A stretch of 64,000 nt of DNA from Enoplolaimus lenunculus. Lineage: Eukaryota. The notes beneath the pieces were generated by a model. That model did not search any database. It was not told the DNA's origin and was given only the letters and a program-made list of their open reading frames with translations. The DNA lies in assembly GCA_030248215.1 (NCBI GenBank), contig JASANG010003910.1, positions 124,001 to 188,000 on the forward strand. The letters are read 5' to 3'. Both the position numbers and the translations under genes were made by a program. Of the stretch, positions 1 through 41,500 are shown one piece after another (position 1 is the first letter of the stretch; the number at the start of each line of letters is the position of its first letter).

Positions 1-1345
1 ATGATATTATTCAGTAGCAAATATGTTAAAAAGCACACAAGAAACTTGTTTCAAAACAAAATACAAATCAGGTACGCGGAGGAAATGACATTCGAAAACC
101 CAGCATGCTATCATTCTGTCGGGTTATTGTTCCGAGAACCGTAAAAAACATTCTTCTTTTAGATACAGCTTAAGTTTGCACAAATTTCTATAAACATTTT
201 CCTGAAAAACATCAACTACACAGACATTTTCATTGTTAAACTCGAGTTTACATCGAGCACGCCATATTGTGAATTGTGCATGTTGGACGATGAAGAAAAG
301 CTATTCTCTTTAATGGATCGTGAATATTTCGTCCCAAAATTAAATCCGAAATCGTTATTTTATTTACTCCAGCTACCTGTTGCAAAACGGGAGTAATGAA
401 AAACTAATTTCTTGTGCCCGCAAACAATAAATAAACACATGAACATTATCCTCCCGCCCTTCAATTCCATCCAAATAACAAAACGAACATATATTTGTCC
501 CATAAGACTGACTAGTGCTGTGATTAGTATACAATGACTTATGTCTTAACCTAAAATGGACGTCTCGCGCAGAGACGTCAACATATTTCGCTTTTGCCCA
601 TATCCATGATCGCTCGACTAAATAGGTTCTACTCCTAGCTCGTCTCGCCGAAAAACATGTTTTGGATGGATGAGCCTTACACACAGCGTGTATCCACATT
701 TTATACAATTTATTTGCCGACACCGCTTTTAAAGAACTTTTCACCAAAAAACCAACAAAAATTCCATCCATGCTAAAAGATGACTCAATCATTGCAATCC
801 GTATCTCAAATCTGGTACATCAATACGTCTCTAGTCGAAAACTGAACTTGCCGAAAGAAATGTTCAAAACATCTCTTCCAACTCACAACTTCGGTACCTC
901 TTAATATTCTAATATAAAACATTAAACGATTCACTTTCAGTCTAACAAAAATATTTGGGAAATTTATCCCGCCGTGACTAGGTTGTAAAAACAGGATATC
1001 CCTTCTAATAATACTAGCGGTAGACGGATACCACAACCACTTATAAACCACATTGATAGTTTTCTTCACTAGTTGATCAGGGGGTGTTACTAATTTTATC
1101 AAATAATTAAACATACGCAAAAAATAAATGTGAACAAGGCGGATTTTTCCAAAAACAGATACCTCAGGGCGCTATTCGCTGTCCAAGACTTGCAATTGCT
1201 TCATAGCACTTTATCCAATTTTCAGGAACATCGATTCCCTTCGAATCAAACCAAAGGCCATAAATTTTCACTCTTTCAACAATAAAACGTGCATATTGAT
1301 GGGGTACAAGTGCGTTCCTTAGATCGCCCAATAACAGTATCTGTG
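1..1345 (-). pseudogene. LINE ORF2 C-terminal part (RT end/thumb, zf-RVT, CCHC), frameshifted
   Basis: ORF 806..1120 (LFLQPSHGGINFPN) and ORF 373..792 (RDVHFRLRHKSLYTN...CSFCYLDGIEGREDNVHVFIYC). Reading down from 1345 gives ILLLGDLRNALVPHQYARFIVERVKIYGLWF. Confidence 0.88.
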
Positions 1346-1426
1346 AATACTTATAGCCCCGCCATGGGACCCTACACGAATGAGGGTCCCATGGGTGGGT
1401 CTTTTGTGTGACTAATAGTCATCAGA
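1346..1426 (+). repeat. Left TIR of the Polinton, with an internal 12-bp-stem hairpin (1362-1394)
   Basis: Matches the reverse complement of 17162-17243 (ccatgg-accctac-cgaatg-gggtcccatgggtgggtctttt-tgtgactaatagtcatcaga). CCATGGGACCCT / AGGGTCCCATGG stem with a 9-nt loop. Confidence 0.9.
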
Positions 1427-1487
1427 GTGACTTTAGGTAGCAATAATATATACGATGAAGTGTTAATACAAACAGAACTTACAACAA

Positions 1488-1812
1488 GGTAAAGCACGCC
1501 TTCCATGTTTAAATTGGTAAAGCACGCCTGCCATGTAGGAATTGATAAATTAAACTGGTAAATCACGCCCTCCATTTTAAATTGGTAAAGCACGCCCTCC
1601 ATGTTTGAACTGGTAAATCACGCGTCCAATTGAACACCTCGACGATTTTAACCCCACCCTCCCTTTCTAACCATCCCTTGGTGTACTATAAATTCGATAT
1701 AAAATTCTTTTCTCGTTCAGTGTGTAATAAACCGAATCGAGATTAATTTTCTCGTCCAGTGTGTAAAAAGCTGAACAAAGAACGTTCTCGTTCAGTGTGT
1801 AATAAACTGAAA
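1488..1812. repeat. Subterminal tandem repeats of the Polinton (~28-bp GGTAAAGCACGCC..CCATG units, then TTCTCGTTCAGTGTGTAA units)
   Basis: About five ggtaaa(g/t)cacgc copies at 1488-1625 and three tctcgt(t/c)cagtgtgtaa copies at 1710-1812. Confidence 0.8.
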
Positions 1813-2124
1813 CGAGACTTTAAACACGAATAATATTTATCATAACCTAACAAATCGTTTATGTACTAAAGTTCCGTCTAAGCATTTGAAATAATGAATG
1901 AGTGTTTTACAAATGAAAAACACGGGAATTGTTACAGTTTTGATAAATGGTATTATTTTTGAAACTGAGGCTAAGACTTTAAGGTAACACCATACGTTTG
2001 TATTCTTAAGTCTGCAGTAACTTTTGTGGTTCAGCATCTTCAAATAACGAATAGGTAAAACGTATGTTATCACCTTAAAGAGGGAAGAGGGAGGGTGTGA
2101 ATTACTTCCAAACACCAAAATATT

Positions 2125-2952
2125 TCATACCAATACCATTGTACCTAGTTTTTTCTTGAACTTTAATTCCAAAGATATTTTACCGCTACCATACTGCACA
2201 TGTTTTCCGAAAGCATCTAAGATTTCCAACCTCAATTTACTAGAATACAGCAGTTTACAGTCTAAAAATTTTATGTTTACTGGTTCGTAAAATAGAATTG
2301 GTTCTTTAATGTTCGTATTGGGAATTATAGTAAGGGTTTTTTCTGAATTATCCTCAATAAATGTAGTGTGTCAGCAGACTGCTACGGTATCGAGTGCAAA
2401 AATTTTGCTGGCTATGAGGCCTTCCTGTGTGATAATCACAGCAGCTTCCAAGAAAATTGCATTGCAAAAATCGGAACGACGGAAAACCCATATTTGCCAG
2501 TTCTTCAACGCGCACATTTTGATACCCACTCAACTCAGCAACTCTTCTGATGAAAGCAGTTTGCTGTGATACTTTAGTGTAAACGAGAGGCTCTTCCAAG
2601 TGATGAAACACCAACACCAGGGCAGCTTCAGGATGGCGAAATCCGTTAGTTGTAATATCGAAAGTGTCGTTGACACGTAGAACCGAACTAGAAGGAAAGG
2701 GCATGCTTTCAAATAAATTGGAAAGCAGACAAATCTTGAGAAAACAAGGTTTCGATGAGTTGAAACTGAAAATTTAGATGAAGCAAGATCAACTTTCTTT
2801 AAACTGATTTCCTGTCGCCGCGTAAGTCCTCGGTAGTGAGGTTCGAATCTAAAGTGATAAATTGGTCCATGAAGTTGGAACTTGACCGTCATTTCCGTTG
2901 TAGCATATAATCCTTCACCTATATGACACGTGTTGAGCAACAGTGACGCCAT
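2125..2952 (-). pseudogene. Polinton minor capsid (penton-like) protein, disrupted
   Basis: Manual translation of the 3' part gives TLTIIPNTNIKEPILFYEPVNIKFLDCKLLYSSKLRLEILDAFGKHVQYGSGKISLELKFKK, matching the Polinton mCP C-terminal pattern (I.I.D..G..V.F..G...L.L.F). Candidate start MASLLLNT at 2952; internal stops. Confidence 0.7.
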
Positions 2953-4038
2953 ATTGATGATGTATATAATAGTTGATTCCTTGAAAACCTTAACTGCGCA
3001 CGCCAACAAAACTGCTTGTGAATAGCAAGATGACGACTAATTCGACCACAGTAAATGCAACAAATAAGATAACGTGACATTCACAAATGATCTTCTAAAA
3101 ATCAAAGCGAAGGTTTTTATAGTCTAGAATGATGTTTATTTTCACGAAAAATTTATTGTCTCCAAGGAAATGCATCTCAGCATTAATCAGATTACAATTG
3201 GGAACAACAAATGGTACTGCCAAGATATGCTAGGTACTCTGGGAAATAGTACTTGGCAGTTGCTTGAAGTGACAGGTACAGACTAGCTCTATGTGCTGAT
3301 TTGAGATATCTAGGTTTTCGTACCGATGAGTACCAGTCAGTTACAGTCACTACAAAGGTCACAGATCTGTTAAATCAATTTTAGACAATTGGTGAAGCCT
3401 AATATTAGTTTATCGGACAATCAGAAAATGAAAGATATATAAGCAGAAGAGCAATAGAGAAATGATGGTTCATTTGCTGATACAGTGAATCTCTGTTCGA
3501 CAAAGAGTCGCTTATGCCACTGATTTGCCTAAAGTAAGTTGCGCAATTTATTGTATTGTGATCATTGCTAAGGTCTTTCAAATTTTAAATTTTCATAACA
3601 AATGGCAGTCATAGCCCCTATGGGCTATAACTAATGCATTTTTTCGAAAAACAAGACACTACTGCCTCTAGAATCTTCCCAAAATATCTAATGTCAGGCC
3701 TATCACATAATACATATCTGCATTGGGTGTCACATCATCCAACATTTCGCAGGTATAAGCAGCAGGCACAAGCAACTTATCCTTAAAAAATTAACTATCC
3801 GCCGGTATAAGCAGCAAGCAGAGCAACTTATCCCTAAAAATTAGATAAACTAATCTTAAAACCAGCAGAAAGGCTGTCATAGAAGGCCTACTTCAGCAGC
3901 GATATTAAAAATAGAACTTAAAACACTCCCAATTGCAGAAGAGGATAGCAATATTGTGTGGTAAAATTAAAAAAACAGCTGGTAGTTATAGACTAAAATT
4001 CACAAAATTCTGAACATAACAGCGCGGTGAAAAACTAT

Positions 4039-4527
4039 TCAAAAAACAAGGCCACAATGGTCACATCCAATTTCAAGAATAACATCTGCCGAGTCATCTG
4101 CAAGATGCAGAGGAACAGCGTCAACTAAGTTATGACAATTTGGGCGTCGTTCAAAACCTATGAATTCTTGTTCCGGTTCCACATCTGAATTTTCAGCGTT
4201 CGCTCCAACGTTATCCGGTACAGCATTCCTAAAATCGAGCACGATTTTTGAAAATTTAAGCTTCAAATATCTAACTTGCATTGCTCTTAATTGCAAGCAG
4301 GGGTTCTGAATCGCACAACCACAGCCAGGGTTGCAACAAAAGTTTGATTTGGCAAAAAATTACAGTTTGGCCTTGGATTTGGTCGTGAAAAGCTTAATAC
4401 CGCAATGTCTTAAAATATATGTTTTTATCAGGTCACAAAGCTCAGAACTGAAGCTTGGAAGGGTACGAAATAACTGCGTTTGCGAAACACATAGATTTGC
4501 TAGAATAATAAATTTTACTAATTTCAT
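4039..4527 (-). pseudogene. Unknown accessory ORF, ~162 codons with one internal TAA; possible signal peptide and Cys cluster
   Basis: MKLVKFIILANLCVSQTQLFRTLPSFSSELC...KAKL*FFAKSNFCCNPGCGCAIQNPC runs in frame into ORF 4039..4296; TAA at 4360-4362. Confidence 0.35.
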
Positions 4528-4696
4528 AATTCAGTTCTCCAAATTACGAGTGAATTGATGTAGTATTGCTTGCTACACTTTCATATATATTATTTTGGGA
4601 TACATTCCTACAGGCAGAAAACACTAACATCTCAACATCATTTGGATTTGGCATTGGTTGCAGCCTTCTTTGCAATCACCTTCTAGTTCGTTGACG

Positions 4697-7269
4697 ATGG
4701 ACAGCGTACCAGAAGTCAAAAGTCTTGCCATAAGAGGGGTATCTGGTAAAACTTATCTGTTGTGCAAAACGTCATTAACAGACAAAGGAAATAATGGTCA
4801 AATTTATGTTGCGAAATGTTTGAACACCAACACTGATGTACTCGTTAAGAAAATTCTGTCAGGTTCGCTGGATTATGCTAATGGAAAATCGCTCGAATTA
4901 CTTGTTTTGGAACATGTAACAGGTGTAAGTACTTGGTTAATTAGAGATAACTTGTCACCAGGTTATAACTTCAAAAGTAGCACATGAAGATAAAAAATGC
5001 AACTGTCTTAATTAGTAGAACTTTTATGCTCTTACATAGTTCCCATTGTCATTATAAAACCTGCCGCAAAAGCAGTTGTCACTCCGCCCGAAAGTGCACC
5101 ACTGCAATAAATGAATTCAAAGTTAGTTTTCAAACAATTTCATTAAGCTTCGCCAGTCTGAAAAACAAAGACACATTTTTAACATAAATTATACAGTTTA
5201 GCAGGCATGCGAACTAAATATTCATCTCAGAGGGAGTGAGTTCGAGAAATACAAATTATAGCATTATTACAGTTAGGTTTCACGGTTTATAACGTTCCCA
5301 AAACAGCAGACATCACAACACTACACCAACAAAGGAAAGGAAGTAGCATATCATGCAAACACAAACACATCTTGGCTCCTAATTACTAGGTCACAACTGT
5401 TTTTAACGCTTTCCCTAAATAGGTATTAATTCAAGTTTGTCCGAACGTTGCAGTGCCATACTCTCTCTTAACATAGCTTAACTTACACTTGGCTATCAAA
5501 ACAGGAGATGCTGCTACAGTTTTGATCACTACGCGGAGTGCTCAATGAGGAAACGTACGGTTGTTCAGTAGAAGATGTAGCCGAGCTAACATAATGAATT
5601 GTGGTAGTCCAAGGACTGACCGTAGCGGACCTAAATTCACCAAAGTATATAGATTATCCTAAAAATCTGCACCTCAAACTACGCACCTGAAGGTAATTTA
5701 GCAATTATGAGGTGTGTGATGTGTTAGTATATAGCAGTATTAAGCGCTACATTCGCAAACTAAAACGTAAGTCTAAAAACTTAGGTATCGCGGAACATTT
5801 TCTAAAGATTTGAATATTTGCGAAATTGATTTTTTTCAAAACAATTTTCAAATGCAAAATCCTATCTTGCTGTCGTAGTAAGACAAATTGAGTTGTCCAA
5901 AATTAAGGGATGTTAGAGTTAGGGTAACGTAAAATAGGCAACTAAGTCCAAAACTATCAAGCAACTAAAAGCAAATAAATATTGCTAAAACAAAACGCAG
6001 ATAGTACAAAGCACACCACACATACGAACTAGTTGGATGAACAAAAAATATTAAATAAGGAAGTTTTCTTAGAATTACGTGTGAAAAGACGTTATTTGCG
6101 AGCTGTGTACTTCACTCGATGATTGTGTTTGATCACTCGATTGCAAAACATTAGTTACAGTGCTTGAGGTTTTGCAAAATGATGTAGCGCTAATTGATGT
6201 TGTGCCAGTTATAGTTGAAGTTGACAGCGTAGTAATAAAACAAACTTCAAAGTCAAATTACTCAAAAACTTAAAATCTCACGTTTTAACGGCTTTTTCAC
6301 CAAATGATGCTGTAGTACGGTGTGAATCTGTGGTTGAATCAGTGCGTGGGTAAACATGTCCCCAAATTTTCACGACAGGATGTTTTGTTGTATATCGCTG
6401 AACGTATCCACGTACAATGATGTTCCGGTAGATGAAAAGCTTAGCTGTTACTCTTTGAACTACTTCAATATTTTGATGTGTTGGAAATATGTAGCGAACC
6501 TTATAATTTTCCACTATTGGAGATACCTTAAAAACTACGGCTGGCGTTGTTGGAGAACTATGCGAAATATCAAAATATGTGAACATCGGACGACAGACAT
6601 TATTTGGTGGCTTGCATAGACAATTTGCCGAATACTGAAATTTTTCAGGAACCAAATGTTGTTTTGCTTGAAGATTACGCTATCATAAAAGCAAACAATG
6701 GTTCGGTATGCTCCAATTTGATATTTCCGTGGTCACCACAAGCCTGTGATTTTGAAAAGTACTGAACACTAAATGGTCCTCTCTGCTATGAAGACGTGAA
6801 AATTGTAATGTATCAAATTTATAGTTGCGCAAAGCGTTTAGGCGAGAATGGAATAATACACAGAGATTTAACAGCTGCTAATGTGGTTTATCATTCTTGG
6901 TACCGATATCCAATTTTGATTGATTTTGATGGGGCATTTCCAGCATACCAAGGAGAACTAATCGAACTGGGGCCAAGACCACTCGAGTGTACAATGCCCG
7001 AAGTCCGAGGACAAAACTTCTACGCTACATGCTCGTCTTCTGTGCTAAATACGGTCCAGATAGGTCAACTAACTCATTTCTTACTCTGTGGGACGTATCG
7101 ACGGCACAATTTTTATTCAAAAAGTATTCCTCTAACAGCTTTCGATTTTATTCAGAAATACACTGATGAAAATAAATATCGACGTTTAAGGTTTTCAAAT
7201 ATTGAAAAACATCAGTTTTTCAAAGAAATGAAATGTGCTTACGAAGGATTCCTTGAAACTATGTTGTAA
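4697..7269 (+). pseudogene. Two-exon Ser/Thr protein kinase (exons 4697-4924 and 6649-7269; ~282 aa; one in-frame TGA at 6763-6765)
   Basis: Exon 1 has KGNNGQIYVAK...VLVKKI (Gly loop and VAIK lysine) and ends at ggt|GTAAGT. Exon 2 starts TTTTTCAG|gaa cca aat, giving a phase-0 join EHVTG|EPNVVLLEDY, and contains IIHRDLTAAN, LIDFD and MPE. Confidence 0.88.
5290..6655 (-). pseudogene. Putative multi-exon type I membrane protein gene (ectodomain, Ser/Thr-rich stalk, TM), antisense inside the kinase intron
   Basis: 125-aa ORF 6278..6655. An S/T-rich frame ends at cac ac|GTAATT (6079/6078). An open S/T-rich exon 5630-5487 (TTTAG|...|GTAAGT, 144 nt, phase 2-2) follows. Acceptor TTTAG|g gaa at 5414 (phase 2) leads into a hydrophobic stretch (DVFVF../CMICYFLSFVGVVL*CLLFWERYK, with a frameshift and stops). 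Confidence 0.5.
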
Positions 7270-7361
7270 TGTTTTTCCTATATTTTTTATATTTTTTCAA
7301 ACAAAATGAAATTTCAGATTTTGTATAAAAATATAATACGTAAATATAAGAATAACTAACC

Positions 7362-8539
7362 ATGGCAGCAAGCGAAAGGACGAGCAATAACATAATAATC
7401 GGAGCAAATGGTCCTTTTCCGCAAACTGAAATAAACGGCTATGAATGCCACGATCTTGCTGAGTATGCACAGGTCACCGATGCTCAAATGTTTATAAGCA
7501 CCATCCCAGAAATTCAGAACCATAATTTTAATGGTATCGTATCAAATCCGTTTCAACAAGTTCCTGAATTCACCTTGGATAGCAACGTAACACAAGGCAG
7601 AACACCTATAACGTCAAGTCATTGCATAGAAGCTAATATCGTAAACACTACATCATGTTTGTTTAATTGGAGTGAAGCTGCTGACTATCTTAAATAAGTG
7701 TTAGCAGCTCAAATGTCTAATCATGTTTCGGAGGTCGCTCAAAAGTATTGGACCGTTGATATCACAAAACATCATGAAATCGATAAACAAATTACAAACA
7801 ATATCTTGAATGCAACTATGGAACAGCCAGCATCAACGGCTAAAAAGAGTTTTGTAACGTCTGTTTGTACCGAAAACCATGCGAAGAGAATTGTCACTAT
7901 TACTCTAAAGGAAATTTATGTGGACATTCGTCTAATCATAATTATTGCCAAGTGTGCGAAGGTTACCACTCATACCGTACTATACAGAAATTTCTCCATC
8001 GAGGAGGATCGTTTTGCTGCAGGTAAGTTTTTCGCCTTAAACATAAAGCTTAAAGTTAAATTTTTCATTTCTTACGCTAGAAAACGTATGTTAGCTTCTC
8101 ATAAAAATAAATATGCCACGGATATCTGTTGAGAGATACCTAACAGGAGGGCCCACAAAGGTTGTCACACCTTTATATGGCTAAACTTCGTTTCTATACT
8201 AGCTGCTATAAGTTTTCTTTACTGGTGTGGTTGCTTCGACCACAGCTACCTGAACCCTCATATAACTCTAATTGGAAATGTTAATTTTTGTTGTGCAGTT
8301 GGCATAAACCAGAAAACAGGGATGCGAGCATTCGCACTACAACAGTAAGCTGTTGCAGCAACAATCAGCTTAATCCCTGCATACACGTTCGCCTGATAGG
8401 AACATCATGTTGCAATCATCGTACCAACTGTCCATTCTACTGTAACTTGTATCCACTGCTATCGTTAAACAAACCACTGCAAGATACTGAAGTTTGTTTT
8501 CCATCACAAAAAAAGAAAATGGACAAAATATCAGAATAA
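7362..8539 (+). pseudogene. Two-exon accessory gene with a Cys/His-rich C-terminal region (exon 1 7362-8022, intron 8023-8298, exon 2 8299-8539); one stop and one frameshift
   Basis: ORFs 7362..7697 and 7698.. are one frame split by TAA. A shift in the A-run at ~7842-7846 opens CNVCLYRKPCEENCHYYSKGNLCGHSSNHNYCQVCEGYH...FCC. Donor ag|GTAAGT and acceptor TTGTGCAG|t are both phase 2, joining to SWHKPEN...CCSNN...CCNHRTNCPFYC. Confidence 0.62.
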
Positions 8540-9012
8540 TTTTATCCATGATGGTTGTTCTACTGAACTGTTTGTTAAGAAATTCTTTTTACAATATACA
8601 GCATTAGGAACATTTATAGACTTAAGGTAGTCAATGAACTGCTGAGTGTCGGTAGGTACATTTTTCTCGTATGGTAGGACTATATAGCGTATCAAATCTA
8701 TTATTGATGAAAAATTGTGGCCTTGAATTGATAACCTACCATTGTCATTGATGTTACCTTTTCGTAAAGAATGTAAAGTATTTTTGCCTTGTTGCCGTAT
8801 GCTTTAGGAAATAAATTTAAAACTTGTTCAAAAGTCGTCTGCTTTTCGCTCACCAGTTCAGGATTCACAAGGTCATAAAGTTTTTCATACTTCTCTTGAA
8901 CACTGGAGTTCGAATTCAAAATTTCAAAAGCCTTTTCTTCAAAACCAGAAGGGTTTTCTGGTAATTTTGGCAAAGGCTTTCCTTCATCAAATAATACTTT
9001 GACATTAGGCAA
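8531..9012 (-). pseudogene. Conserved uncharacterised Polinton protein, frameshifted near 8760
   Basis: VLNLFPKAYGNKAKIL, then after a frameshift NDNGRLSIQGHNFSSIIDLIRYIV...QQFIDYLKSINVPNAV...W. This resembles the conserved Polinton ORF usually found near the ATPase (P....KA..L / G.l...g...S.I.DL / F...L...NVP). Confidence 0.68.
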
Positions 9013-9325
9013 AAGCTTTTAGCAAAGGTAGTGCAATTTTAACGATATTTTTGACGAATTTTATATTATTGAAAATTAAGCGATTACGAGAAATAAGAGA
9101 CAAACTTCGTTCAGACAATTTTTGCAATAAGTTACGATTTTTCCTTAAATAATTTTTATTTACCTTTGATAATTCCAGATTCGAATATGCTAGATTGTAC
9201 GCTATTTCAGTTAAGCGCTTAACAATGGCAGGATGTGCCGAAATAATTTTTTTGGCTTTCTGCTGGTTAGAAATGTGTGACAATATTTCTAAATTGCCAA
9301 TGTTTGATAAAACAATATTCGACAT
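9005..9325 (-). CDS. Small basic conserved Polinton protein (~106 aa) downstream of the ATPase
   Basis: MSNIVLSNIGNLEILSH...LTEIAYNLAYSNLELSKVNKNYLRKNRNLLQKLSERSLSL matches the L.E.A.N.L.gn..Ls......L pattern of the small Maverick ORF. It overlaps the start of the next gene. Confidence 0.65.
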   Translation of the reverse strand: MSNIVLSNIGNLEILSHISNQQKAKKIISAHPAIVKRLTEIAYNLAYSNLELSKVNKNYLRKNRNLLQKLSERSLSLISRNRLIFNNIKFVKNIVKIALPLLKAFA

Positions 9326-9390
9326 ACCGTCAGATTGATAGATTTTGCGCAATGTACATCTATATATAGAAAATTTCTAATATTAAATTA

Positions 9391-10055
9391 TTACAAAATA
9401 AAAATCTCTTGCACCGTATCTGAAGGAAGTGATGACCGAAATTTCAGTAAACAGTGATTATAGGGACATAAGTTAATCCACAAAAACCCAAAAGTTGTTC
9501 CTGTAAAACCTGCTCATAAATTTCCAGAAACTTTTTAGTTTTGTTTGGTGCAATACTTTGCCCTAGAGTATTCACCTGTCGTAAATCTCTACGACAGGCC
9601 ATTAGAAATATGTGGGTCATTTGTCTGTTTATAAGCACGCTAAATTTTCCTTTTATAAACAGTCCTTGAAAAAGACAAATCACGGAAATATTTCGGTGAT
9701 GACTATAAACAGTGAAAAGTCTCATGCACTCAGCGGAATTTATAAATTCATGTTGCAGGTCATCGAAAACAAGAGCTGTATTGTTATTTGCCCAGTATTC
9801 ACTGTCATCAATAACTTCCTTTGGTAATCCTTTGTGAAAGGTGATATTGCGAATTTTCAATTTCAGTTTGTCATACGCAGGCTGGTAAACTTCATAGCAA
9901 AACAATATTTTGTCAAAATTTGTCAAAAAGAAATTTTCCGTCAGCAGACAAAAGCACAAATCCGTTTTACCGGACATTGACTCGCCCGCTAACAGTATTC
10001 TGCTGTTAGGTCTGATCCGAAGATCTGTTAATATTTCTTTTCTAAAAAAGGTCAT
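9391..10055 (-). pseudogene. Polinton genome-packaging ATPase (A32/FtsK-HerA type), with a C-terminal frameshift
   Basis: Walker A AGESMSGKT, Walker B LVFDDL, LFTVYSHHRNISVICLFQ. After a frameshift near 9485 the frame reads FLWINLCPYNHCLLKFRSSLP...IFIL* (stop 9391-9393). Confidence 0.93.
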
Positions 10056-10516
10056 AACTAATAGGATTTTTGGTTTACTAAACTTATTTGTATATAGTCT
10101 CTAAAACTGAAACGTTAATTATTTATGAAACAGCGCAAGCGCTGCTCCACCCGAGCACTGTAACCCCCCTTCCGCCCTTCTTCCTGCCCACCCTCTCCCT
10201 AGCACCAGCCAGGGAGAGCGGACAGAGAGGCATGGAAGGGAAGGACGAAAGGGGTAAAGAGGAAGGCGGTACAGCCTGCAGAAACCCTAACTCAAAAAGC
10301 TGTTGTACCAGACCCTTGTGATGATAAGGTGCACCGAGAACTGATGCTTAGGTCATAAGGCTTTCGCCGAGACCCGTCGCGTACCACAGCAAATAATGCA
10401 CCAAAATCATCAGGTCTGTACATAGCTCATCGAACCTACTTAATACACACATGAAGAACAACACTCGGTCCCCATATACATGCACTCACAAACACACTCA
10501 TTAATACAAATTTAAT

Positions 10517-11045
10517 CTAATTATTATAGTATGGAGTTCTGTTCGACTTGAAAACAAGATTTGTTGACTCCTCGCACAAAGCATACAACACAGTATCTTG
10601 TGCAATCGGAGTTTCAAACGTAAGCTTTATCTTTAAGTAGCCCACTGTTGACTTCTCCACGAACGACGAACAACCAATTGAATTGGAAGCCGTCAGATCC
10701 GCAATCCAAATTGTATAACCGCCAGGGAAATCATTATAGCCAATATCTATATTACGATTAATAAATCCTAAACCGTTGAAAATTAGGTAATAATCAAACG
10801 CAAAGTCATATTCTGAAAACTTAGAAGATAATCCTTCTGATGTGAAAACAGGTGTTTCGTTTTTGTAAAGTGAAAAATTAGTTAGACTATTGTGAATAAA
10901 CTCGAAGGGATTGAGTGTGATATCAGTGCCATCCGTGGCTCCTTTTTAACCATAAATACATACAATCGTTTAGTCATACTCCCTGCAGGAATTAGGGACC
11001 ACTGATGACTAGTATCATTCTTGCGAATAATATGTTCGTACAAGG
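10517..11045 (-). pseudogene. Polinton major capsid protein (double jelly-roll), 3' half only; not in the ORF track
   Basis: Manual translation: IPAGSMTKRLYVFMVK / GTDITLNPFEFIHNSLTNFSLYKNE...DFPGGYTIWIADLTAS...GYLKIKLTFETPIAQDTVLYALCEESTNLVFKSNR. This matches the Polinton MCP C-terminal motifs (NPF.F.H, GYT....DLT, G.L.....F). Similarity is lost above ~11045. Confidence 0.88.
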
Positions 11046-12355
11046 GTTACCGAAGAGGCGTTTAAAAGCCTCATCAGCAACCCTTACAATGAACTAAATT
11101 TCAGCAGCTTCACTATTTCACGAAACAAATATAATGCCGAAGTGTTCAGCTTAACTTCTACTAAACGATTTAAATTTACCTTGAATAAGAGACTTCTATG
11201 CAATGACTTGACGACTCGTTGCATTGGTGACAAGTCTGTTAAACGCAACGAACTTGCTTAATTCGTACCCACATTTTGATTCTGCGAAATGCTGATTACG
11301 TTGGTTGAATGTGCTACTATTTTTTATATTACTACTTTATGAAGGTTATAACTCTTATCGATGGCTATAACTTCTTGTTTGTACTTAGTTATATCTACTT
11401 GGAGTTAATTGTAACTACTTGCAGCTGATTACAACTACATGCATGGAGTTATAATCACTTGCAGGTAGTTATAACTACTTCCTGATGGTGATTATCTCTT
11501 TCCTTTATGTTTGTGCAGTAGTGTCTTGCACAACAAAATATACGCATGTGCAAAATATTGAGGGGGAGGTATATTTCAATATTAGGTCAAAGGTGTGGTA
11601 AAATTACGTTTTATATGACAAAATTGAAAAATGCACTGTTTTTTGTATAATTTTGAAACCAGATATTAACCTGCTGCAAGTAAGAAAATGCTGAAATTTA
11701 GCCATGCATGGTTGTATGAACCAGTGCAAATTTTCGAAGTACCCCTTCTCTTGTCATTATATAATTCATTTTTGAACTGAATTCTTCAAAATTAAAGTTA
11801 ACTCCATGACTTTGTTTTTTTGAGCGTTTTGCTTTCTTTTTTTCAATTTTCTACGGTAGTTATCAACATTTGATTTCATACCTAAATTTGGAATACGATT
11901 AATTGATCCAACAATCTTGGCATCATCATGTTTCTCAATTTGGTCCACAACTACGACACTATCATTCCTGTCAGTTTGTTCCAAAATCATGACATCATCA
12001 TCATCATCATCTGTATCCGTAACAATTATAACATCATCATCAACTGTGTCGGTTTGCGACGAAACAGTTTCATTGTCAGCAGAATATTCATTTGAAACAA
12101 TAGGTAAGTCATTCGCGTTTGTCACAACTGAAATCAGGCATACCTTGCCTAGACAATGGCTGATATGCTTTGGATCGATAGCCTAAATAGACATATTAGT
12201 TAAAGGAAATGTGATGACCAATATTTAGATCAAGAGGCATTCATGGATATGTAATGGTGCTTTCGCTATCGAACCATTAAATTTATTAGTACTTTTCGCG
12301 TAACCTAATACCTGTTAGACAGCTATTGCAAAAATATCTCTGTAAATATGTATAT

Positions 12356-12477
12356 CAGGGTGCAACCGGAGGTGAAAAACACCGGAGCTGAAGCCAAACG
12401 TCAACGAAACTTGCCGAAGCCGGAGGCCGATTTTCTGCTGGAGCTGGATACGAAGGCAGACGTCCGGTTGTACCCTG
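12356..12477. mobile_element. hAT-type MITE (family A, short copy)
   Basis: TIR CAGGGTGCAACCGG / CCGGTTGTACCCTG; 8-bp TSD ATGTATAT at 12348-12355 and 12478-12485. Confidence 0.85.
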
Positions 12478-12679
12478 ATGTATATGTCGACTTACTATTA
12501 CTTTCCATAAGTGAATTAATGTTGAGGTCCATTTGGTAATATCACTGTTGCTTCGTATGATAATTTCTTTGGGCTCCGTATAACTGTTGCACTAAGTGCC
12601 ACTATGAATTTTGTCCCATTACGTGCATCAACAACAAAATGATTTCTGCATAACATACAATCGCTCTGGTTTGGTTCAC

Positions 12680-12775
12680 TGATGATGATGATGTTGTTGT
12701 TGTTATTGTAGTTGTTATTGATGTTGTTGTCGTTGTTGTTGGGTGTTGTTTTTGTTGTTGTTGTTATTGTTGTTT

Positions 12776-12810
<35 letters not shown>

Positions 12811-13560
12811 GATGATGATGAGGTCATTGCTAATGATCGGGCTTCCATCGTAGCATTCACTTGTGTTTACATCGCTGTAGAATTGGTGATTGTCAATCAT
12901 TAGTTCGTTAAAAGCAAAGGAGCCATTACAGTCCTCACTATTGCTGTTGTTGTTGCTATTGTTGTTGCTGACGTTATTGTTGTTGTTATTTCTGAAGCTG
13001 TAGCTATTGTTGCTAATGTTGCTGTTGCTGCTGTGGCTGAAGTTGCAGCTATTGTTGCTAACGTTGCTGTTGCTGCTGTGGCTGAGGTTGCAGCTATTGT
13101 TGCTAACGTTGCTGTTGCTTCTGTGGCCGAGGTAGCTGTTGCTGAGGTTGCTGACGTTGATGTAGCCATGGTTGAAGTTGCTACTATTGTTGTCGACGTT
13201 TTTGTGGCTGAAGTTGTTGCTATTGTTGTCGTCGTTGTTGTTGTTGTTGATGATTTCGTCATTGCTAACGATCGGGCTTCCACCGTTGCATTCACTTGCG
13301 TTTACATCGCTATAGAATTGGTGAGTTAATCATTATAGTTCATTAAAAGCAAAGGAGCCATTACAGTCCTCACTATTGCTGTTGTTGTTGCTATTGTTAT
13401 TGCTGACGTTATTGTTGTTGTTTCTGAAGTTGTAGCTATTGTTACTAATGTTGTTGTTGCTGCTGTGGCTGAAGTTGCAGCTATTGTTGCTAACGCTGCT
13501 GTTGCTGCTGTGGCTGAGGTTGCTGTTGCTGAGGTCGCTGTTGCTGCTGCCATGGTTGAA
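12680..13560. repeat. GTT/GCT trinucleotide-rich minisatellite with a duplicated ~420-bp unit
   Basis: (gtt)n at ~12780-12810. The blocks cattgctaa-gatcgggcttcca and aaaagcaaaggagccattacagtcctcactattgct each occur twice, ~435 bp apart. Confidence 0.85.
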
Positions 13561-15867
13561 ATTTATACTATTGTTACGGGGCGTCATTTCAGGCCACCCA
13601 CTTCAAAAAGTTTCTGCTTCTGTTTCTTAGTTACTGTCGCCCCTTGTGCAAACTCCAAAGTGTGTGGTCGTCATAGTTTCATTGAACGACAATTTTGGTT
13701 GCAATTAAGACACCGTTTTCAAAGTTTTGTTGTCGATAGTATACTTTTCGTTTAATTATACTTTTCGTTTAAAGTTTGAATATTTTTACAAACAGAAACG
13801 GACGCATGCGCAATATTGTGGTGTTGATATCAAGGTGACATTCTGCTCGCCTGCGGGTGTCAAAGTTTGATAAATATTACTCGCAACTTTAAGTTTTAAA
13901 AGATTTTATTGCAAAAATGTTATCGTTCACGCAGAAAAAAGGAGATATTTCGTTTAAAATACAAAAGTTCGACCACTAATGAGTCTATTAATTACTTTAT
14001 AAAAATGGGTGCAGTACAACTATAAAAGAAGATGTAGCACCAGCTTTTAGCTTCAGTTTGAAAAAGTGAAATTTTCCGAGAGTGCAAGTCAATAGTGTTT
14101 GTAAGCGTTTGTTTTTCTGTTTTTTGTATACATCAATTGATTTTAACTGAAAGTTCATGCGGTGGTTATCCTATACTTACTGGTAAGTCAAGTTTAATGT
14201 TTCAAAATACAGATTAATTTATTAAAGAAGCCTAGATGGGCGCTTCACTACTTATCAATTGGTTCTGAAAATAATTTTAGAAACTTTATTATCATAGAAA
14301 AATTGAACATTGACTACAGACTTTTGGGTGCTTTACGATTTTATCTTGTGATGTTAATTCGAAATTAGGATTTTGATTTCGCCATTAAAACAATTGCCAT
14401 AGTAACCGAAACGTAACACTATTGTTGTTGACGTTGTTGTGGCTGAAGTTGCTGCTATTGTTGTGGCCGAAGTTGCCACTATTGTTGTTGCTGACGTCGT
14501 TTTGGCTAAAGTTGTAGTTATTGTTGTTGCTGACGTTAATGTTACCATGGTTGAAGTTGCTACTATTGTTGCCGACGTTGTTGTGGCTGAAGTTGCTGCT
14601 ATTGTTGTTGTTGATGATGCTGTTGCTGTGGTTGAAGTTGTTGTTGTTATTATTGTTGTTGTTGATGTTGTAGCCATGGTTGAAGTTGTTGTTGCTGCAG
14701 ATGTGGCTGCTGCTGCTGCTGACGAGGTCATTACCTTCATCATCACTTTCGATGTTAATTAAAGGTACTATATTATTCATATTTTTAAAATAGCTAAAAA
14801 GTTGTAACTTTCCAACATATAATCCGTGTGTTCAGAGCTAATGCATATTATCATCTATACCTAACCAGCAGCATTGTCGACTTTTGCCAAACCTGGAACT
14901 GGATATCCGTCACCTAACGACATATGCTGTTTTTACAAATTGTGTGGTAGCCTGTAATAACTTTGTTTATAAATTTTTCATGGCAGTTCTTAAATTTCTG
15001 ATTGCCAAGATTTATGCAACAATAATCCTGAAACCTAACTTTTAGAGCTCCAAAATTTTTAAGAAATTATTATATTCAATAACTTCAACAAAAATATTTA
15101 CTTAAAAGTTTGAAAACGCCTTTTTAATCCAAATCACGAGTTATTGTTATGGCGTCTTTGTCAATGTTTTTGTAAAATTATTGATTAAAATATTTATCAA
15201 AAATATTTACAAAAGACGGATAATAAAAACTCGTGATTTGGATCTAAAAGGCGTTTTCAAGCTTTTAACTAAATATTTTTGTAAAATGTTTCCAAAATTA
15301 GAAAATATAATAGCTTGAATATAAATTTTGTGCTTTAGAAACTAAATATATTAAGTATTAAGAAAAGCTTCATAACGGTAGGACAAAGCTTGCAAGCTAG
15401 CAATACATACAGATAAAAACATGGGCGGTACTGTTGAAGAATCAAAAAAGTTTTGCCTTTTAATAGTGCAAGAAAGGTATACGTCACTACCTATAGATGA
15501 CAGAACCTATACTAAAACATAAATATAGACTTATCATACAGTACGTGTAGTAAAATTTGAAGTTTGGCATAGAATTTTATGTAGTACGGCAAGGCAACAC
15601 CTCACTAAACTTTTATGTTAAACCGGAAATAACCATATTTGTTTTTCCAGAATTGCTAGAGTTCAACTGATAAGTAGGATGCAACAGGAACTAAAATTGC
15701 TGGAGCCGCAGATCAGCATCATTAACAAAGTTGTGTTTATCACAAAACTCTTTGGCAATATCAATTAGACACGTAAACTTGGTTGGCTGTAACGTTTTTG
15801 CGTACATATTGAAAGGCGAAGGTTAAAAACTAAACGCAATTGCTGGCAGCTGAACTATACAAATGAG

Positions 15868-16588
15868 TAAATTCCCAGAAAATTATAGACGTTTTAGTAA
15901 AACGTTTTTGTAACTGTTATCACTACGTAAGCGACGCTACTAAGATTGACGATTAAAATGTCAATTAATGCCAAGAAATATCCTTCATAGAAAATTAATC
16001 AAACAAAGGTTTAAGGTTTGATAGCAATGTACGCGACGCCACGTAACCGTGTACTAACAAGACTGACGGTGGTCCGTACATAGAACTGGAACTTAACAGT
16101 AGTATAAGCATATTTCTAAGCGTAAGCCTAAACCTAAGCCTAAGCGAAAATATGAGCCTATACCTAAGCCAAAGCAAAAAATTAGTCTATAGCTTACTCT
16201 ATCACAGTCCCTCGGGAAAGGTTACAAAAAATTAAATTCCTAGAAAACTATACACGTTTTAGTAAACAAGACGTTTTTCTAGCTGTTATCACTAGGTAAG
16301 CGATGCTACTAGGATTGGAAATTAAAATGTCAATAAATGCCAAGAAATATACTTCATAGAAAATTAATCAAGCAAAGGTTTAAGGTTTGATGTCAATGTA
16401 CGGGCGCCACATAGCCGGGTACTAACAAGACTGACGGTGGTCCCTACATAGAACAGGGTCGTAACAGTATAAGCATATTTCTAAACGTAAGCCTAAACCT
16501 AAGCCTAAGCGGAAAGATGAGCCTATACCTAAGGCAAAGCAAAAAAAATGGTCTAAAGCTTATACTATTACAGTCCTCGGGAAAGGTT
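15868..16588. repeat. Tandem duplication of a ~365-bp unit containing a CCTAAG/CCTAAA-rich interspersed repeat
   Basis: 15868-16222 and 16234-16588 align throughout. A related reverse-oriented copy lies at ~28965-29097 (cagggtcgtaacag...aagcatat...gtctaaagctta). Confidence 0.85.
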
Positions 16589-17161
16589 CCAATCCTGTTC
16601 TATACATGGGCCGATTCGATTGTTGAAATCTTCCCGGCCCTCTAACACCTCATTTTTCTCTATTTGCACAAACACACAAACACTTCAGAAATAAATTTAC
16701 TTTTATTTTTACATAAGTGTTATTCAAATACATTCAATTTTATAGATGATGGTATAACAGTAAGGTTTCTTACGCTAAACCAATGCTTAAGCATGCTCAA
16801 TAGTACCTGTCAATGGTTGAGTCCAATGTTATGTTTTAAGACAACAGTTCTAGTTCACGCATATTCCTAAACGTAAGCGTAAAAATAAGTGTTAATATCT
16901 ATGCCCCCAACCAAAAGATTCGACAAGCATCATTGTTTCTTCATTCAAATTGGTTGAAAATTGAGCCTGAAAGCAAATTTTGAAATTAAATATTAGGTTC
17001 AGTGGTTAAAATACAGTGGGCATAAATATAACTAGTGTATATGCAACAGTTTTTTGTGTATTAACATAAGTATGAGTAGTTATAGCCCCGTCATGGAACC
17101 CTACGCGAATGCATTTACCATATTCCTTTAAAACGTTAGCCATCAATGATTATTGTTTCTG

Positions 17162-17243
17162 TCTGATGACTATTAGTCACATAAAAGACCCACCCATGGG
17201 ACCCGCATTCGCGTAGGGTTCCATGGCGAGAATTATAACTACT
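17162..17243 (-). repeat. Right TIR of the Polinton
   Basis: Reverse complement of the left TIR; ends in ACTACT, followed directly by the TSD TCTGTG. Confidence 0.9.
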
Positions 17244-17890
17244 TCTGTGTTTTAGTTTCCTTTAGTCGGCTGCCAGAGGCCTTTTGAAATTATTCAAAAA
17301 CATCAAAAACCACACTAACATCCGAAATCCTGCTTAGAAATATATTAGTGTGGTCGGCAAACTTAGTTTCTCGGGGTTAATGCCGTATAGTGGTATCCCC
17401 GAAATTCTTGAAGATATTCGAAGATAATGAGCTACCACTTCCGCTGTTATGATATATAATAACGGCGATAAGGGACACCCTTGTCGAATTCCGTGGAAAA
17501 CATGAAGAAATTCTGACTTAAAACCATTAACTATGATAGATGATCTTTTGATCATGTTTAAAAAGTTTTCACCAAAAATTCATGACCCTAAGTGTCTCGA
17601 AAATAATCGACCACTCCACCAAATCAAAAGCGGCTTTGTGATCAACGGATAGCAGCAACGCCTTTGCGTTGCTTTCATTGGCATAATGAATAACAGACAT
17701 GACATGTACAACACTGTCTTGGATAATTCTGTCGGGAACCGAGCTTGTCTGATCCGGGTGGTCTAAAGTTTTCATGGCAGATTCTAATCTTTTTGCCAAA
17801 ACTTTCGTAAAAATCTTATAATCTATATTCAGCAACGTAACTGGCCGCCAATTATCGCGACACGTTTTCGCTCCATTCCCTTTATATAAT
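17244..17890 (-). pseudogene. LINE ORF2 reverse transcriptase core, frameshifted
   Basis: NWRPVTLLNIDYKIFTKVLAKRL, HPDQTSSVPDRIIQD, LLSVDHKAAFDLVEW, GIRQGCPLSPLLY, degenerate catalytic motif KFADHTNIF. Confidence 0.93.
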
Positions 17891-36172: not shown

Positions 36173-37722
36173 AATTATAAATGCGAAGATTTAAACCATA
36201 ACAACAACCATAACTTCATGAGAACGGTTCTTTTCAATTAGTTTTTCAAACACAACCGTGAGAGACATAACAGTTTCCCTGACCCAACGCACTGAAATAT
36301 ACGCCAACAAGTAAAATTGATACATTTTACCCCGCTGTTGTGTGCAAAAATGATCGGCAAAAAATCGGCAATGTTTTGCAGTGCCAATTAATAGGCAGAT
36401 CCTATTATAAAACGGATTTTTAAAAGTGGGTAATGTGGATATATTAAATATGTTGGTGTGTTGATTACGTTCCCAGGCAAGTCAAAATCCAGCTGTACCC
36501 TGTTCACAATCCAACCTTTTCGGTTTTCAGTTCGGTTAAAAGCTGTAAAATGTTGATAAAACTTTTAGTTTATAAATTTTGTATACCAACAAACCTGATT
36601 CAGCATATCAAAAGTTACCGGAAGATGTGAAAAAGAGATTTAATGAATACAAGTACCGCATAGTTAAGAAATCAGATTCTCATAACGTAACCGAAATTGT
36701 GAATCCACACTGCTACCTATAGCTTTGAAACCGTATCTATCTATACGCTTGCTATGGCTAAACACAATATCACACACTAGATTAGCTCTTTAGAGTTTCT
36801 TTTTCGATTCATATTTCTTGGACACCGTTATCATGGAATAATCAGTTGTTAAGCAGTTGAGCCCAGGCCAAATTGCTAAGAGTTTAAAATGATAATATTT
36901 CTTACCGCTTTCTGCGTTTTTGCCGTTAAGAACACAAGTTGCATTTTGACAAATATATATTTTGCTAAATATTACTGTAAATACCATGGTGTGACCGTAC
37001 GTATATCCGGTTCTCGAGAAACACCAACATATGGCTCCGGTATTATACTTTAAGGGATATTTAACGCTGAAAAGTATAACAACTATGTATTATGCTGTAG
37101 TTTGTCACCAAAATAGCAGTATTTGATATCAAGCGCCTTTTTCCGCAATGGCAAACCTAAGTGTGTGTATACTACGAAACACAGTTAATACTAAAACTCT
37201 TGAGCAACAAAGTTATCGTATCCCAGCGCAAAAATGCGCTTAATCCTGATCCGACAGGACATTTTCGGATTAATCTTAGCGATGGGAGCGAACAATGTCT
37301 ACCTCACATTCATGGCATGTAGTGTTTATTCGTTTCGTATTTTGTACATCTGTTTACATATGGGTATATGAGCCCGCGCATAATAGTTTGATTGACATGT
37401 TTGCTTTTCTCAGGAATTCTTTATTTGAGCTACCGACCTGGAATGGCATATGTTTGATTTGACATAGCCACGGATGTTTAATTTCTGAGATGCTTGCTTA
37501 ATACAATATGCAAATACGTAATCAATGATAAGGTAAAATTTTGATCCATTACTTAAATAACTACTGAGTTGATGTTTGAAAACCTTAATAACTTTGCATA
37601 AGTTGCACTATTTCCAAAGAATCACCTTTAACATAACGCTGCGCACTTTGTGCAAGAAGTTAAGAAAATTTGAGCACAACAAGCACGGTACTAAGCGGAA
37701 CAGAATCATGTCAGGATCGTAA

Positions 37723-38578
37723 GGGTTGCGCTATACTTGACGTCCGGCGCCATCCGTCACCCGTCCGGCGCCATTCGTCACCCGTCCGGGTCACCCGTCC
37801 GGCGCCATCCGTCACCCGTCCGGCGCCATCCGTCACCCGTCCGGCGCCATCCGTCACCCGTCCGGCGCCATCCGTCACCCGTCCGGCGCCATCCATCACC
37901 CGTCCGGCGCCATCCGTCACCCGTCCGGCGCCATCCGTCACCCGTCCGGCGCCCTCCGTCACCCGTCCGGCGCCCTCCGTCACCCGTCCGGCGCCCTCCG
38001 TCACCCGTCCGGCGCCCTCCGTCACCCGTCCGGCGCCCTCAGTCACCATCCGGCGCCCTCCGTCACCCGTCCGGCGCCCTCCGTCACCCGTCCGGCGTTT
38101 GCACTATTTTTAAAACCACTATACTTGATGTCTGTCACCGTGCGTCACCCGTCCGGGTCACCCGTCCGGCGCCATCCGTCACCCGTCCGGCGCCGTCCGG
38201 CGCCATCCGTCACCCGTCCGGCGCCATCCGTCACCCGTCCGGCGCCATCCGTCACCCGTCCGGCGCCATCCGTCACCCGTCCGGCGCCATCCATCACCCG
38301 TCCGGCGCCATCCGTCACCCGTCCGGCGCCATCCGTCACCCGTCCGGCGCCCTCCGTCACCCGTCCGGCGCCCTCCGTCACCCGTCCGGCGTTTGCACTA
38401 TTTTTAAAACCACTATACTTGATGTCTGTCACCGTGCGTCACCCGTCCAGCGCAGTACGTCGCCGTCCGTCGCCCGTCTGGCTCTGTTGGTCACCCGTCC
38501 GGCGCCGTGGTTCACCCGTACAGCACCGTCCGTCACCGTGGGACGGCGCTGGACGTCAACAAAGGTGTAGCGCAACGC
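37723..38578. mobile_element. PIF/Harbinger-type MITE filled with a 21-bp GC-rich minisatellite
   Basis: TIR GGGTTGCGCTATAC / GTGTAGCGCAACGC; TAA on both flanks (37720-37722, 38579-38581); internal CCGTCCGGCGCC(A/C)TCCGTCAC tandem units. Confidence 0.82.
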
Positions 38579-41500
38579 TAACCCGAAAAAATTGCATGTG
38601 CGTGAAACAGCTTAAGGGGAAGTACATACGTATATTAGCAAGGGCTCATTGTGCACAAGCAGTATAACGATTAGTATAAGGATTACGTTTCTGATATTTT
38701 TGGTGACTTAATTTAGTTTGTAGTGGACGACTACACAGCCATTGTTACTTTCAAAAATGTACATGAATATTTGTACGAAGTGTGAACATGGATATCAGAA
38801 AAAGTTTCAGTTTTTAAAACTTTGAATCAGAATTCAAAAACGTAATAAATTGCATATGCTTATCTTGAAGAACGTAAAACCGGGCGATATATGTTTTTGG
38901 TTGTTGTTCTTTAGATTACAAATATCACGCTGAAGGTTATGTTTTTGTGAGATATGTAAATATGCATGTGATATCGGGCTCCGCCTGGTTGTTGTAATAT
39001 CCGGCTTCACAGGTAGCTGCAGTATATTATCGGGCGCCGCAGGAAGCTGCCGTATATTCTCCGACTCCACAGAAAGCTATCAGAGTTGGACATTACCCGT
39101 TGCTAATCGCGGATCGGGTAAACAATTTCAGGCGTGGATATACCCGCGGGTAAAAATATGCAGTTCTTACTCGCGCCAAATTTTTATGTGTTGACGTGCA
39201 AAACATACGTTAGGAACTATTGTAGTGACCCGAATAAGAGGGGGCAGAGATATTTATTTTGCCTCTCCAAAGAGTACGTACCCCTCTGTTATTCGGTTAC
39301 GGACTGTGATTTATTTTTAACCCGCCCTCCGCCTCCCTTCGTTACTGATATAATGGTCATCTGATATTCATACTAGCCAAATATTGCTCAGAACAACGCA
39401 TGTCGGTGCATTATATAAAGCGGGGTTGTGATGCCATCATTCAATAATGAGGTTACGTGAACTACTTTGAGTAAGCTTCCAGATGTTACGTAACGTGATA
39501 TGGTCTGGTTTACTTCTTGTCAGGGCCCATATTCTCAAATGCATATAGCACCTATCATTAGTTATTGATAGGTTTTCAAACTGACGAAGTGCTGCAATTG
39601 CAGATCTCAAAATTGGTACAACAGTAAGACAAATCAAACGCAAACAATACGCTGAACTTCGAACCTCACTATGCGCTGGTACCAAAGTTACAGGACCTAT
39701 CGCCAACAGGTGATAGGTGCTACACACATTTGAGAATACGGGCTCAGATGCTGTGCAATGTTATACCGGTGCTTCATTTAGTTGGGTTTCAAATTTTGTT
39801 GTTTCTAGTACACTTTCATGTGTAAAATTCATTGGAGCTATAAACGTAAAACTTCATTAAATTGCGAATCACCAGCAATCAAAATTCTGGTTTAACTTCC
39901 GTCGCGGGCAAAAGGTGGGTCGCTGGTCGATCTTTTTGGTGTGCGTATACCCGCGGGCAACAAATTCATATTTGCGTCGGTAAAGCTCGGGTCGGGTAAA
40001 AAAAATCCTTGCCCGCTTCCAACTCTGGTATATATCCAGTGCTTGTTTAACATCAGGCGACAAAATGGCCGTTTCTGTAGTTGAGTATACCTATATACCT
40101 ACCAAGTACTGCTTGTCTACGGTCAACAGAATATTTATGAACGTTTTATAGGGAATATGCTGTTGCTCTTCATCACCGACACCTGTTCAATTTAGTATGG
40201 GACGGTTGACGTTTTATTGTATTGAAGTTGTCACACAAATAGTTATGCTTTTCCAGTTGTGCAAACACCGGAACATTACATTGGGTCATTGACAATTGGC
40301 TGAAAATTAGTAATTTTATGCTATCAGGTTGATAACTTTGTAATCTCCCAGGGTTGAACTAAATTGTGCTTGAACAGGAACAGGAACGGGAATTTGAAGT
40401 GGTTTTCATCATCGAATATTACTACTGAACTTTTTTGAAAACTTGCCAAAAAGTGGCTCAAGCGAATTTTCAGCTATTTCATCATCAAGTTTTGTAAGAA
40501 CACATCGGAAACAGATTATGTAACAAAATTGAACTAATTGCAAAAACATTTTCTAAGACAAATTCAATAGTCAGATGATTATTAATAATTTGCCACAAAA
40601 CAGTAAAAATTCCGGTTCCTGCATTTTTATGTCAATTCTGGTTTGAACAGCAGTTCCGGTTTCGGTTGAAGCCGGCAATCTCCATAAACAGACTTATATG
40701 GCGCTTGCTTCAGCGAAATCTGGCTGCTGAAACAGCAGTTTTTATTTAGATGCTGGAATTCAGCCTATTAAATTTTGGTCAGTGGAAATTAACCCTTTAT
40801 CACATGAATATTTTCTATTTCCCCTGAGACCTACATTTATGCTAGGATTCGAACTCCAGTGACTGGAGTGGGAGGCCTTTTCCATCACCACTCAGCTATA
40901 GGAGCTTGACGCTCGAGCCCGAGGGGCTTTCACGTCTTGTGGTGATTTAGTACTATGTATATGTGTTGCAATTGTTAAACACTGTGCTTTATATATTATT
41001 TAACGTATATACACTGCACTGAGTTGCCTGTAGGCAACTCTATGTGAAAAGGGTTTAAGCATTTTACTAAAGAATACGGCAAAAATGCAATAGATTTTAT
41101 TAATATAGTATATAAACCTTGACAATCACCGAAAATAAACCATCGAATGCAGATTTCGCGTCCGTGGATAATGAAAATCTAAAATACAACAGATTAAGTA
41201 AATACTGTCTGTAACTAAGGTTATTCCACCAACAGTATATATAAAGATTAAAAAAATTTTCCGTAGCTTGTATTTTTCGCTTTCCGGTTCTGTTTCCGGT
41301 AACTTTTTTCAACTTTGGTTCCCGTAAATTGTTATTCTGGTTGCACCCTGGCACCGGCACATTTTTTCGGATAATTATTGTAATAGTTGGATATCCGACA
41401 GGGTTCCACCGTACGTAATTTCTGTTACAGCCGGATATCCTGCAAAAATTCAGTTCCTGTTTTTGCATTTAATGATGCAGGAACCGGAATTTTTACGGTT

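Follow-up and report, generated by a model that had tools for sequence, protein, structure and literature searches.

A divergent, cargo-rich Maverick/Polinton in Enoplolaimus lenunculus: a dead copy, most likely internally deleted, with a predicted intron-split kinase gene

A Maverick/Polinton in the genome of Enoplolaimus lenunculus raises the question of whether an element that displays capsid and packaging genes together with spliced-looking cargo, and no visible module for replication or integration, belongs to a lineage that dispenses with this module or is what remains of a longer element. The locus was analysed in a window of 64,000 nucleotides (contig JASANG010003910.1 of assembly GCA_030248215.1, positions 124,001–188,000 of the forward strand), to which all coordinates refer, and the element occupies positions 1346–17243 (15,898 nt). 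It is a real, divergent and cargo-rich Maverick that is new, and the present copy is most likely internally deleted and dead. We consider it probable that this copy, lodged in a long interspersed nuclear element (LINE), derives from a longer cargo-rich element, that internal deletions likely removed the genes for DNA polymerase (pPolB), integrase (INT) and protease (PRO), and that a kinase gene with a predicted intron was part of its load.

The Maverick-type insertion into a LINE is confirmed. The hexamer TCTGTG is repeated on both sides as a target-site duplication (TSD), and the cores of the terminal inverted repeats (TIRs; 1360–1426 and 17162–17228) share 63 of 67 letters in a local alignment of the ends. 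On the minus strand the right terminus reads AGTAGT, of which the left terminus matches four of the six letters. The flanks on both sides derive from a LINE reverse transcriptase on the minus strand (RVT_1, E = 2e-15 and 2e-3). The window was also compared with contigs from three conspecific DNA runs (X1–X3), representing at most two samples of one study; results from them hold among the matches listed, counts and lengths are lower bounds, joints with 30 nt or less on either side were left aside, and contig depth gives a hint only and no copy number. A joint running from 1339 directly to 17244, with six letters fitting either side, occurs in contigs of all three runs, so other LINE copies are empty at the insertion site. 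Short echoes of the termini are also found within the element: a forward copy of the terminal motif at 17075–17112, about 130 nt inside the right end, makes 17075–17243 an imperfect terminal hairpin that has AGTAGT...ACTACT ends, lacks a separate TSD and may have arisen by template switching, and a short head-to-head palindrome in mid-element (3606–3630) resembles the first ~14 nt of the TIR.

The recognisable core genes make up about 2.2 of the 15.9 kb and lie in the order MCP-ATPase-PM-PZ, with no PRO behind the major capsid protein gene (MCP). This order differs from those of both references used, L001, a complete canonical Polinton obtained through a metagenome scan (rve, Chromo and DNA_pol_B_2 confirmed), and L003, a second canonical Polinton obtained through a viral-contig scan. 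Among 13 L001 proteins searched by tblastn, matches were obtained for the ATPase (E = 2.6e-17), MCP (1e-8), PM (0.003) and PZ (0.015); one unrelated open reading frame (ORF) likewise reached 0.003, which marks the noise level of this search. The 13 L003 ORFs matched the ATPase (E = 2.3e-18) and MCP (1e-8), and nothing else. Over the aligned parts, identity to L001/L003 is 32–34% for the ATPase and 31–32% for MCP. The names PM and PZ were assigned by position behind the ATPase, following the part of Barreat and Katzourakis (2021, PMC8097293) drawn on here, and their z scores (Table 1) were calculated against 300 shuffles. The closest MCP relative among 58 matches (P0003, 440 aa) is about 50% identical, the part in the window corresponds to its residues 263–439, and one relative matches the Pfam DJR-like family; the gene is thus predicted to be of the double jelly-roll type, of which only the 3' 40% is present. 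The minor capsid protein (mCP) is only suggestive: a C-terminal resemblance over 78 aa gives a z of about 2.7, the better of two tests had it equalled by 18 of 2000 shuffles and the other by 77 of 2000, and both BLASTP and a two-sequence profile were negative. An earlier note, made from the letters of the window alone, had proposed exact boundaries with TIRs and a 6-bp TSD, an ATPase, two small conserved ORFs and the 3' half of MCP, all of which are recovered here (for PZ, in its C-part), and the decayed mCP that it also listed is a weak candidate. The ATPase-PM-PZ block (~8100–10480) has about 10 times the contig depth of the rest of the element in X1, including a 676-nt piece that differs from the window at one position, which hints at an amplified related element.

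Neither pPolB nor INT is present in this copy, and the same note had recognised neither of them, nor PRO, by eye. For pPolB, neither Pfam, run over 178 of the 185 stop-free stretches of at least 38 aa (seven low-complexity ones omitted), nor tblastn with two pPolBs gave a match, with nothing up to E = 1 for that of L001. No stop-free stretch in the element exceeds 218 aa, which leaves no room for a concealed whole pPolB. No rve integrase was found by Pfam, tblastn (L001 INT, E = 0.97) or profiles, and the L001 integrase was detected by Pfam as a control. An adenain-type protease reached at best a profile independent E-value (iE) of 0.24 and a tblastn E of 0.29; this test is weaker because Pfam missed the control protease of L001 too. 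Shuffle tests and two-sequence profiles lent no support to mCP, INT, protease, PW or pPolB, and the kinase was the sole Pfam match among the stop-free stretches scanned. Viral-contig scans with the ATPase and MCP of the window, alignment A1, the L001 protease and a 20-mer of the TIR returned no match. In this state the element would be unable to build a capsid or to replicate on its own.

Evidence on how this state arose comes from the related contigs, which are ~96% identical to the window and depart from it at several points. At 11046 they continue into unlike sequence for 1869 nt (X2) and 818 nt (X3), coming from the other side, and the missing MCP part needs ~790 nt of such overhang. At 2361, just where the mCP-like remnant begins, an X2 contig continues for 1118 nt; further departures are found at 6561/6562 (237 and 415 nt in X1, 398 nt in X3) and 12595 (444 and 431 nt), and at 4556 contigs carry 267 extra letters. 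Summed over these five points, the lower bounds amount to at least ~4.1 kb of extra sequence. The breakpoints at 2361 and 11046 cut a capsid-like remnant and a capsid gene, respectively, which is unlikely for chance insertions in the other sample and argues for deletion in this copy; that MCP homology ends at 11055 and contigs leave the window at 11046 points the same way. Both references, L001 and L003, have INT immediately upstream of mCP. One X3 contig spans 6562–10036, thus linking the kinase C-lobe and the ATPase in another sample. Decay is of the order of 3–6% (four differences in 67 letters of the TIR; contigs ~96%). Element depth rises ~5–11-fold from X1 to X2, as does that of LINE and MITE (miniature inverted-repeat transposable element) repeats, and unrelated short matches have similar depth; the contigs may therefore be alleles of this locus and not sister insertions. 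A young multi-copy family, considered on account of the high X2 depth, was dropped, as host repeats scale alike between the runs.

Table 1. Features of the element and its borders, in window coordinates.
Feature	Position	Strand	Remarks
Left TSD, TCTGTG	1340..1345	.	Sequence and empty-site joint
Left TIR	1346..1426	+	67-nt core 94% identical to right; terminal 15 nt degenerate
Subterminal short direct repeats, two small families	1488..1817	+	
Candidate C-terminal mCP remnant, identity unconfirmed	2125..2360	-	Weak pairwise score; cut at 2361 breakpoint
Orphan ORF broken by stops, ends at 2361 breakpoint	2361..2952	-	No Pfam, NCBIfam, PHROG or Atlas match; predicted local distance difference test (pLDDT) score 30
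Kinase exon 1, predicted (N-lobe: Gly-rich loop, Lys strand)	4697..4924	+	Kinase N-lobe alignment at E = 1.1 only
Predicted phase-0 GT-AG kinase intron, 1724 nt	4925..6648	+	Contigs bridge both borders
Kinase exon 2 (C-lobe, HRD and DFD motifs)	6649..7269	+	Reading frame interrupted here by a single stop
Orphan accessory ORF, one in-frame stop	7362..8129	+	Donor at 8023 ranks highest in the element
PZ-like conserved Maverick ORF, frameshifted	8531..9018	-	C-part z = 6.2 vs L001 orf243; tblastn E 0.015
PM-like small conserved Maverick ORF	9005..9325	-	Two-sequence profile iE 4e-6; z 6.7–7.4
A32/FtsK-type packaging ATPase	9400..10055	-	Frameshifted near C-terminus
3' 40% of MCP gene	10517..11055	-	One frameshift; cut at 11046–11055 breakpoint
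Broken low-complexity accessory gene	11766..14780	-	Asn/Ser-rich frame, CxxC segment, acidic part and basic tail
Tandem duplication, ~370 nt x2, 87%, with high-copy host repeat	15858..16592	+	
Right TIR	17162..17243	-	Plus strand ends ACTACT
Right TSD, TCTGTG	17244..17249	.	Sequence and empty-site joint

A full-length ancestor may have been inserted by a Maverick-type DDE integrase, as its 6-bp TSD and AGTAGT end would suggest; its accessory genes, placed among and alongside the core genes, would have relied on host transcription and splicing, as for nematode cargo; its kinase most likely acted on host signalling. Deletions after or around the insertion would have taken the blocks at 2361 and 11046, which correspond in canonical elements to the positions of INT, found upstream of mCP, and of further core genes, found upstream of MCP, and point mutations and host MITEs would then have piled up. 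Several points weigh against this history. The presence of pPolB, INT and PRO in the extra segments is presumed, and positional arguments are soft, given a gene order that differs from both references; the mCP call is unconfirmed, and the protease searches were weak. The lower bounds leave ~2.8 kb unexplained, against ~5 kb needed. Furthermore, an X1 contig runs unbroken across 11046 (10742–12151, ~3% divergence), so that the deletion there would be old and shared, as in a helper-dependent subfamily. Of the two options left by the earlier note, deletion after insertion is nevertheless the one favoured by the breakpoints at 2361 and 11046 and by the contig overhangs.

The other option is a Maverick lineage of which even the full-length form has neither pPolB nor INT, or a deleted form that has spread, keeping capsid, packaging and spliced cargo genes and mobilised in trans by an autonomous relative. 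Besides the 11046 junction shared with another sample, the lack of any trace of pPolB, INT or PRO in 15.9 kb and the intact, short ends fit such a lineage, and a divergent MCP-like contig that departs from the window at 10726 in X2 hints at a related subfamily and a possible helper. However, the related contigs hold kilobases more at the very breakpoints that cut capsid genes, a truncated and frameshifted MCP would be useless to a spreading satellite, and no second insertion site with a TSD of its own was established in the contigs. Trans-mobilisation is therefore regarded as unlikely. It is similarly doubtful that the locus stands for an animal Maverick satellite without polymerase and integrase, composed mostly of host-spliced cargo that includes a eukaryotic-type kinase with an antisense gene in its intron.

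The kinase is the only cargo gene that could be identified, and by its sequence it appears to be a divergent kinase of the eukaryotic type. Exon 2 matches Pkinase from profile position 85 (E = 3e-6, below the curated cut-off of Pfam) and, among PDB entries, CaMK1G (E = 1e-6) and CDC7 (E = 4e-6), with no relative among 44 candidates in the protein collection. Exon 1 has no Pfam match and carries ~20 residues ahead of the N-lobe; its relaxed motif, written after the sequence had been seen, occurs at one site in the six frames of the 64 kb. Exons 1 and 2 complement each other and would join in phase 0, with the GT donor ranked 24th of 1008 and the AG acceptor 41st of 844, and the gene is likely split by a GT-AG intron of 1.7 kb, which holds an antisense orphan ORF (~6281–6550) and the breakpoint at 6561. 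Splice sites were scored with a generic matrix, and the ranking of pairs was post hoc. Of 20000 trials at arbitrary points, 47% had a phase-compatible GT/AG pair no more than ±15 nt away, and 0.1% had a pair as strong as that of the kinase.

These figures bear on the least likely of the readings, in which the cargo would be host or mobile DNA that entered this one locus, the contigs would be alleles in a very polymorphic species, and the apparent introns would be nested insertions or chance GT/AG pairs. Such pairs are indeed frequent by chance, host MITEs and repeats lie inside the element, the depth of which, scaling like host repeats, hints that it may be low-copy, and the ATPase-PM-PZ block exceeds the cargo in X1 depth. 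Against this, the ends of the kinase intron bear neither TIR nor TSD, its sites are of a strength rarely met in the trials, nothing in the protein collection is closely related to the kinase, which would be unusual for a conserved host gene captured recently, and a divergence between alleles similar to that since insertion leaves little time for several large captures, so that we regard this reading as improbable.

The remaining cargo is less informative. Where the earlier note counted three to five accessory genes, several with introns, the kinase has a family match and its intron is reasonably supported, and a top-ranked donor stands at 8023 (rank 1 of 1008), whereas the other genes have no homologues and the other introns are no better than chance. 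The frame of the ORF at 7362 is also open through to 8129; none of 107 candidates proved homologous to it, and a profile test against the accessory ORFs of L001 and L003 was negative. Several contigs share with the window only the 90-nt piece 7934–8024 and diverge at the 8023 donor; the piece may mark an exon end that paralogues have conserved, or it may be a small repeat. Atlas gave no usable match for two orphan ORFs, both of which lie below its recognition level, and the single-sequence folds (pLDDT 30 and 41) were unusable. L001 itself carries three related accessory ORFs with one common domain at 382–4108, upstream of its ATPase. An assignment of the 2952 or 7698 ORFs to the accessory ORFs of L001/L003, PC4-like in appearance, was rejected at a profile probability of 0.3%, as was paralogy between the 7362 ORF and 11050–11330 (local score 235, shuffle maximum 236); an exact 21-nt inverted match joins 7612–7632 and 11193–11213 without wider homology. 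PLA2X, gasdermin, Bcl2 and IAP had no match among the ORFs scanned.

The low-complexity gene is interrupted by a host MITE (12348–12485), the breakpoint at 12595 and an 851-nt gap (13567–14417), an indel between 9-nt direct repeats without a GT-AG reading at its ends. The MITE belongs to a family with many copies at 31–63 kb of the window and has a shorter form in related contigs. No family match was found for the gene, and its splice candidates rank 105–124 of ~900. A Thr-rich mucin reading of 12741–14780 is disfavoured by nine stops in the Thr frame versus two in the Asn frame, a reading by SUMO-interacting motifs was not significant (one of six pattern matches inside the gene), and two Rfam matches in this region were judged to be chance. 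Beyond the element, the window contains a spliced kinesin-2 gene (best matches KIF3B/KIF3C), which would indicate an animal host, and, at 37695–38667, a GC-rich 21-nt tandem array with several frames open.

Non-autonomous Polintons were reportedly described in the original Repbase work. Nematode Mavericks are described as combining intronless core genes with intron-containing protease (wasp) and kinase (krma) cargo (Widen et al., bioRxiv 10.1101/2022.07.12.499685). The present element resembles them, in the part of that account considered, in joining intronless core genes to intron-bearing (here predicted) cargo including a kinase within TIRs. Spliced cargo is therefore not new, and the undescribed lineage that the earlier note had suggested, marked by such cargo, was overstated. 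The differences are that the nematode cargo occupies a region of 2–5 kb from the left TIR to the integrase, whereas here accessory DNA flanks and separates the core genes, and that this copy has no pPolB or INT. KRMA kinases resemble CtkA, HipA and MavQ and bear an N-terminal ubiquitin-like domain, whereas the matches found here are to eukaryotic kinases (Pkinase; CaMK/CDC7-like), and the short N-terminal part of exon 1 likewise does not place the gene among them.

In vertebrates, 96% of Maverick copies are degraded, and intact elements carry eight ORFs, none with an intron, organised as two modules, according to the portion of Barreat and Katzourakis (2021, PMC8097293) used here. Shared with them are the 6-bp TSD, the (AGT)2 end motif, a TIR length within 46–1447 bp, the ATPase-PM-PZ block, accessory regions and a degraded state; by contrast, one accessory gene is here predicted to be spliced, and MCP comes ahead of an ATPase of like orientation, with no protease behind MCP. 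Host-acting accessory genes are common in adintoviruses and other animal polintoviruses (Starrett et al., 2021, PMC8502044, in part), and a eukaryotic-type kinase, present here, is not named in section 3.2 of that paper; a further difference is that identity to the nearest MCP recovered, that of P0003, is only 50%. In the literature searched, with subscription papers and supplements outside it, no paper reporting a eukaryotic-type kinase as Maverick cargo was found. Polinton remnants of another kind, with pPolB and no INT, appear in the text consulted of bioRxiv 10.1101/2024.01.15.575659.

At present the locus amounts to a decayed fragment in which the kinase is the one cargo gene with a family match. 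If fuller copies prove autonomous, intron-bearing Maverick cargo would extend beyond nematode wasp and krma to a eukaryotic-type kinase, carried by a divergent lineage with a gene order of its own, which would support Mavericks as general carriers of spliced animal genes. If pPolB and INT are missing from fuller copies as well, the element would be a satellite Maverick that keeps its capsid, and would matter more.

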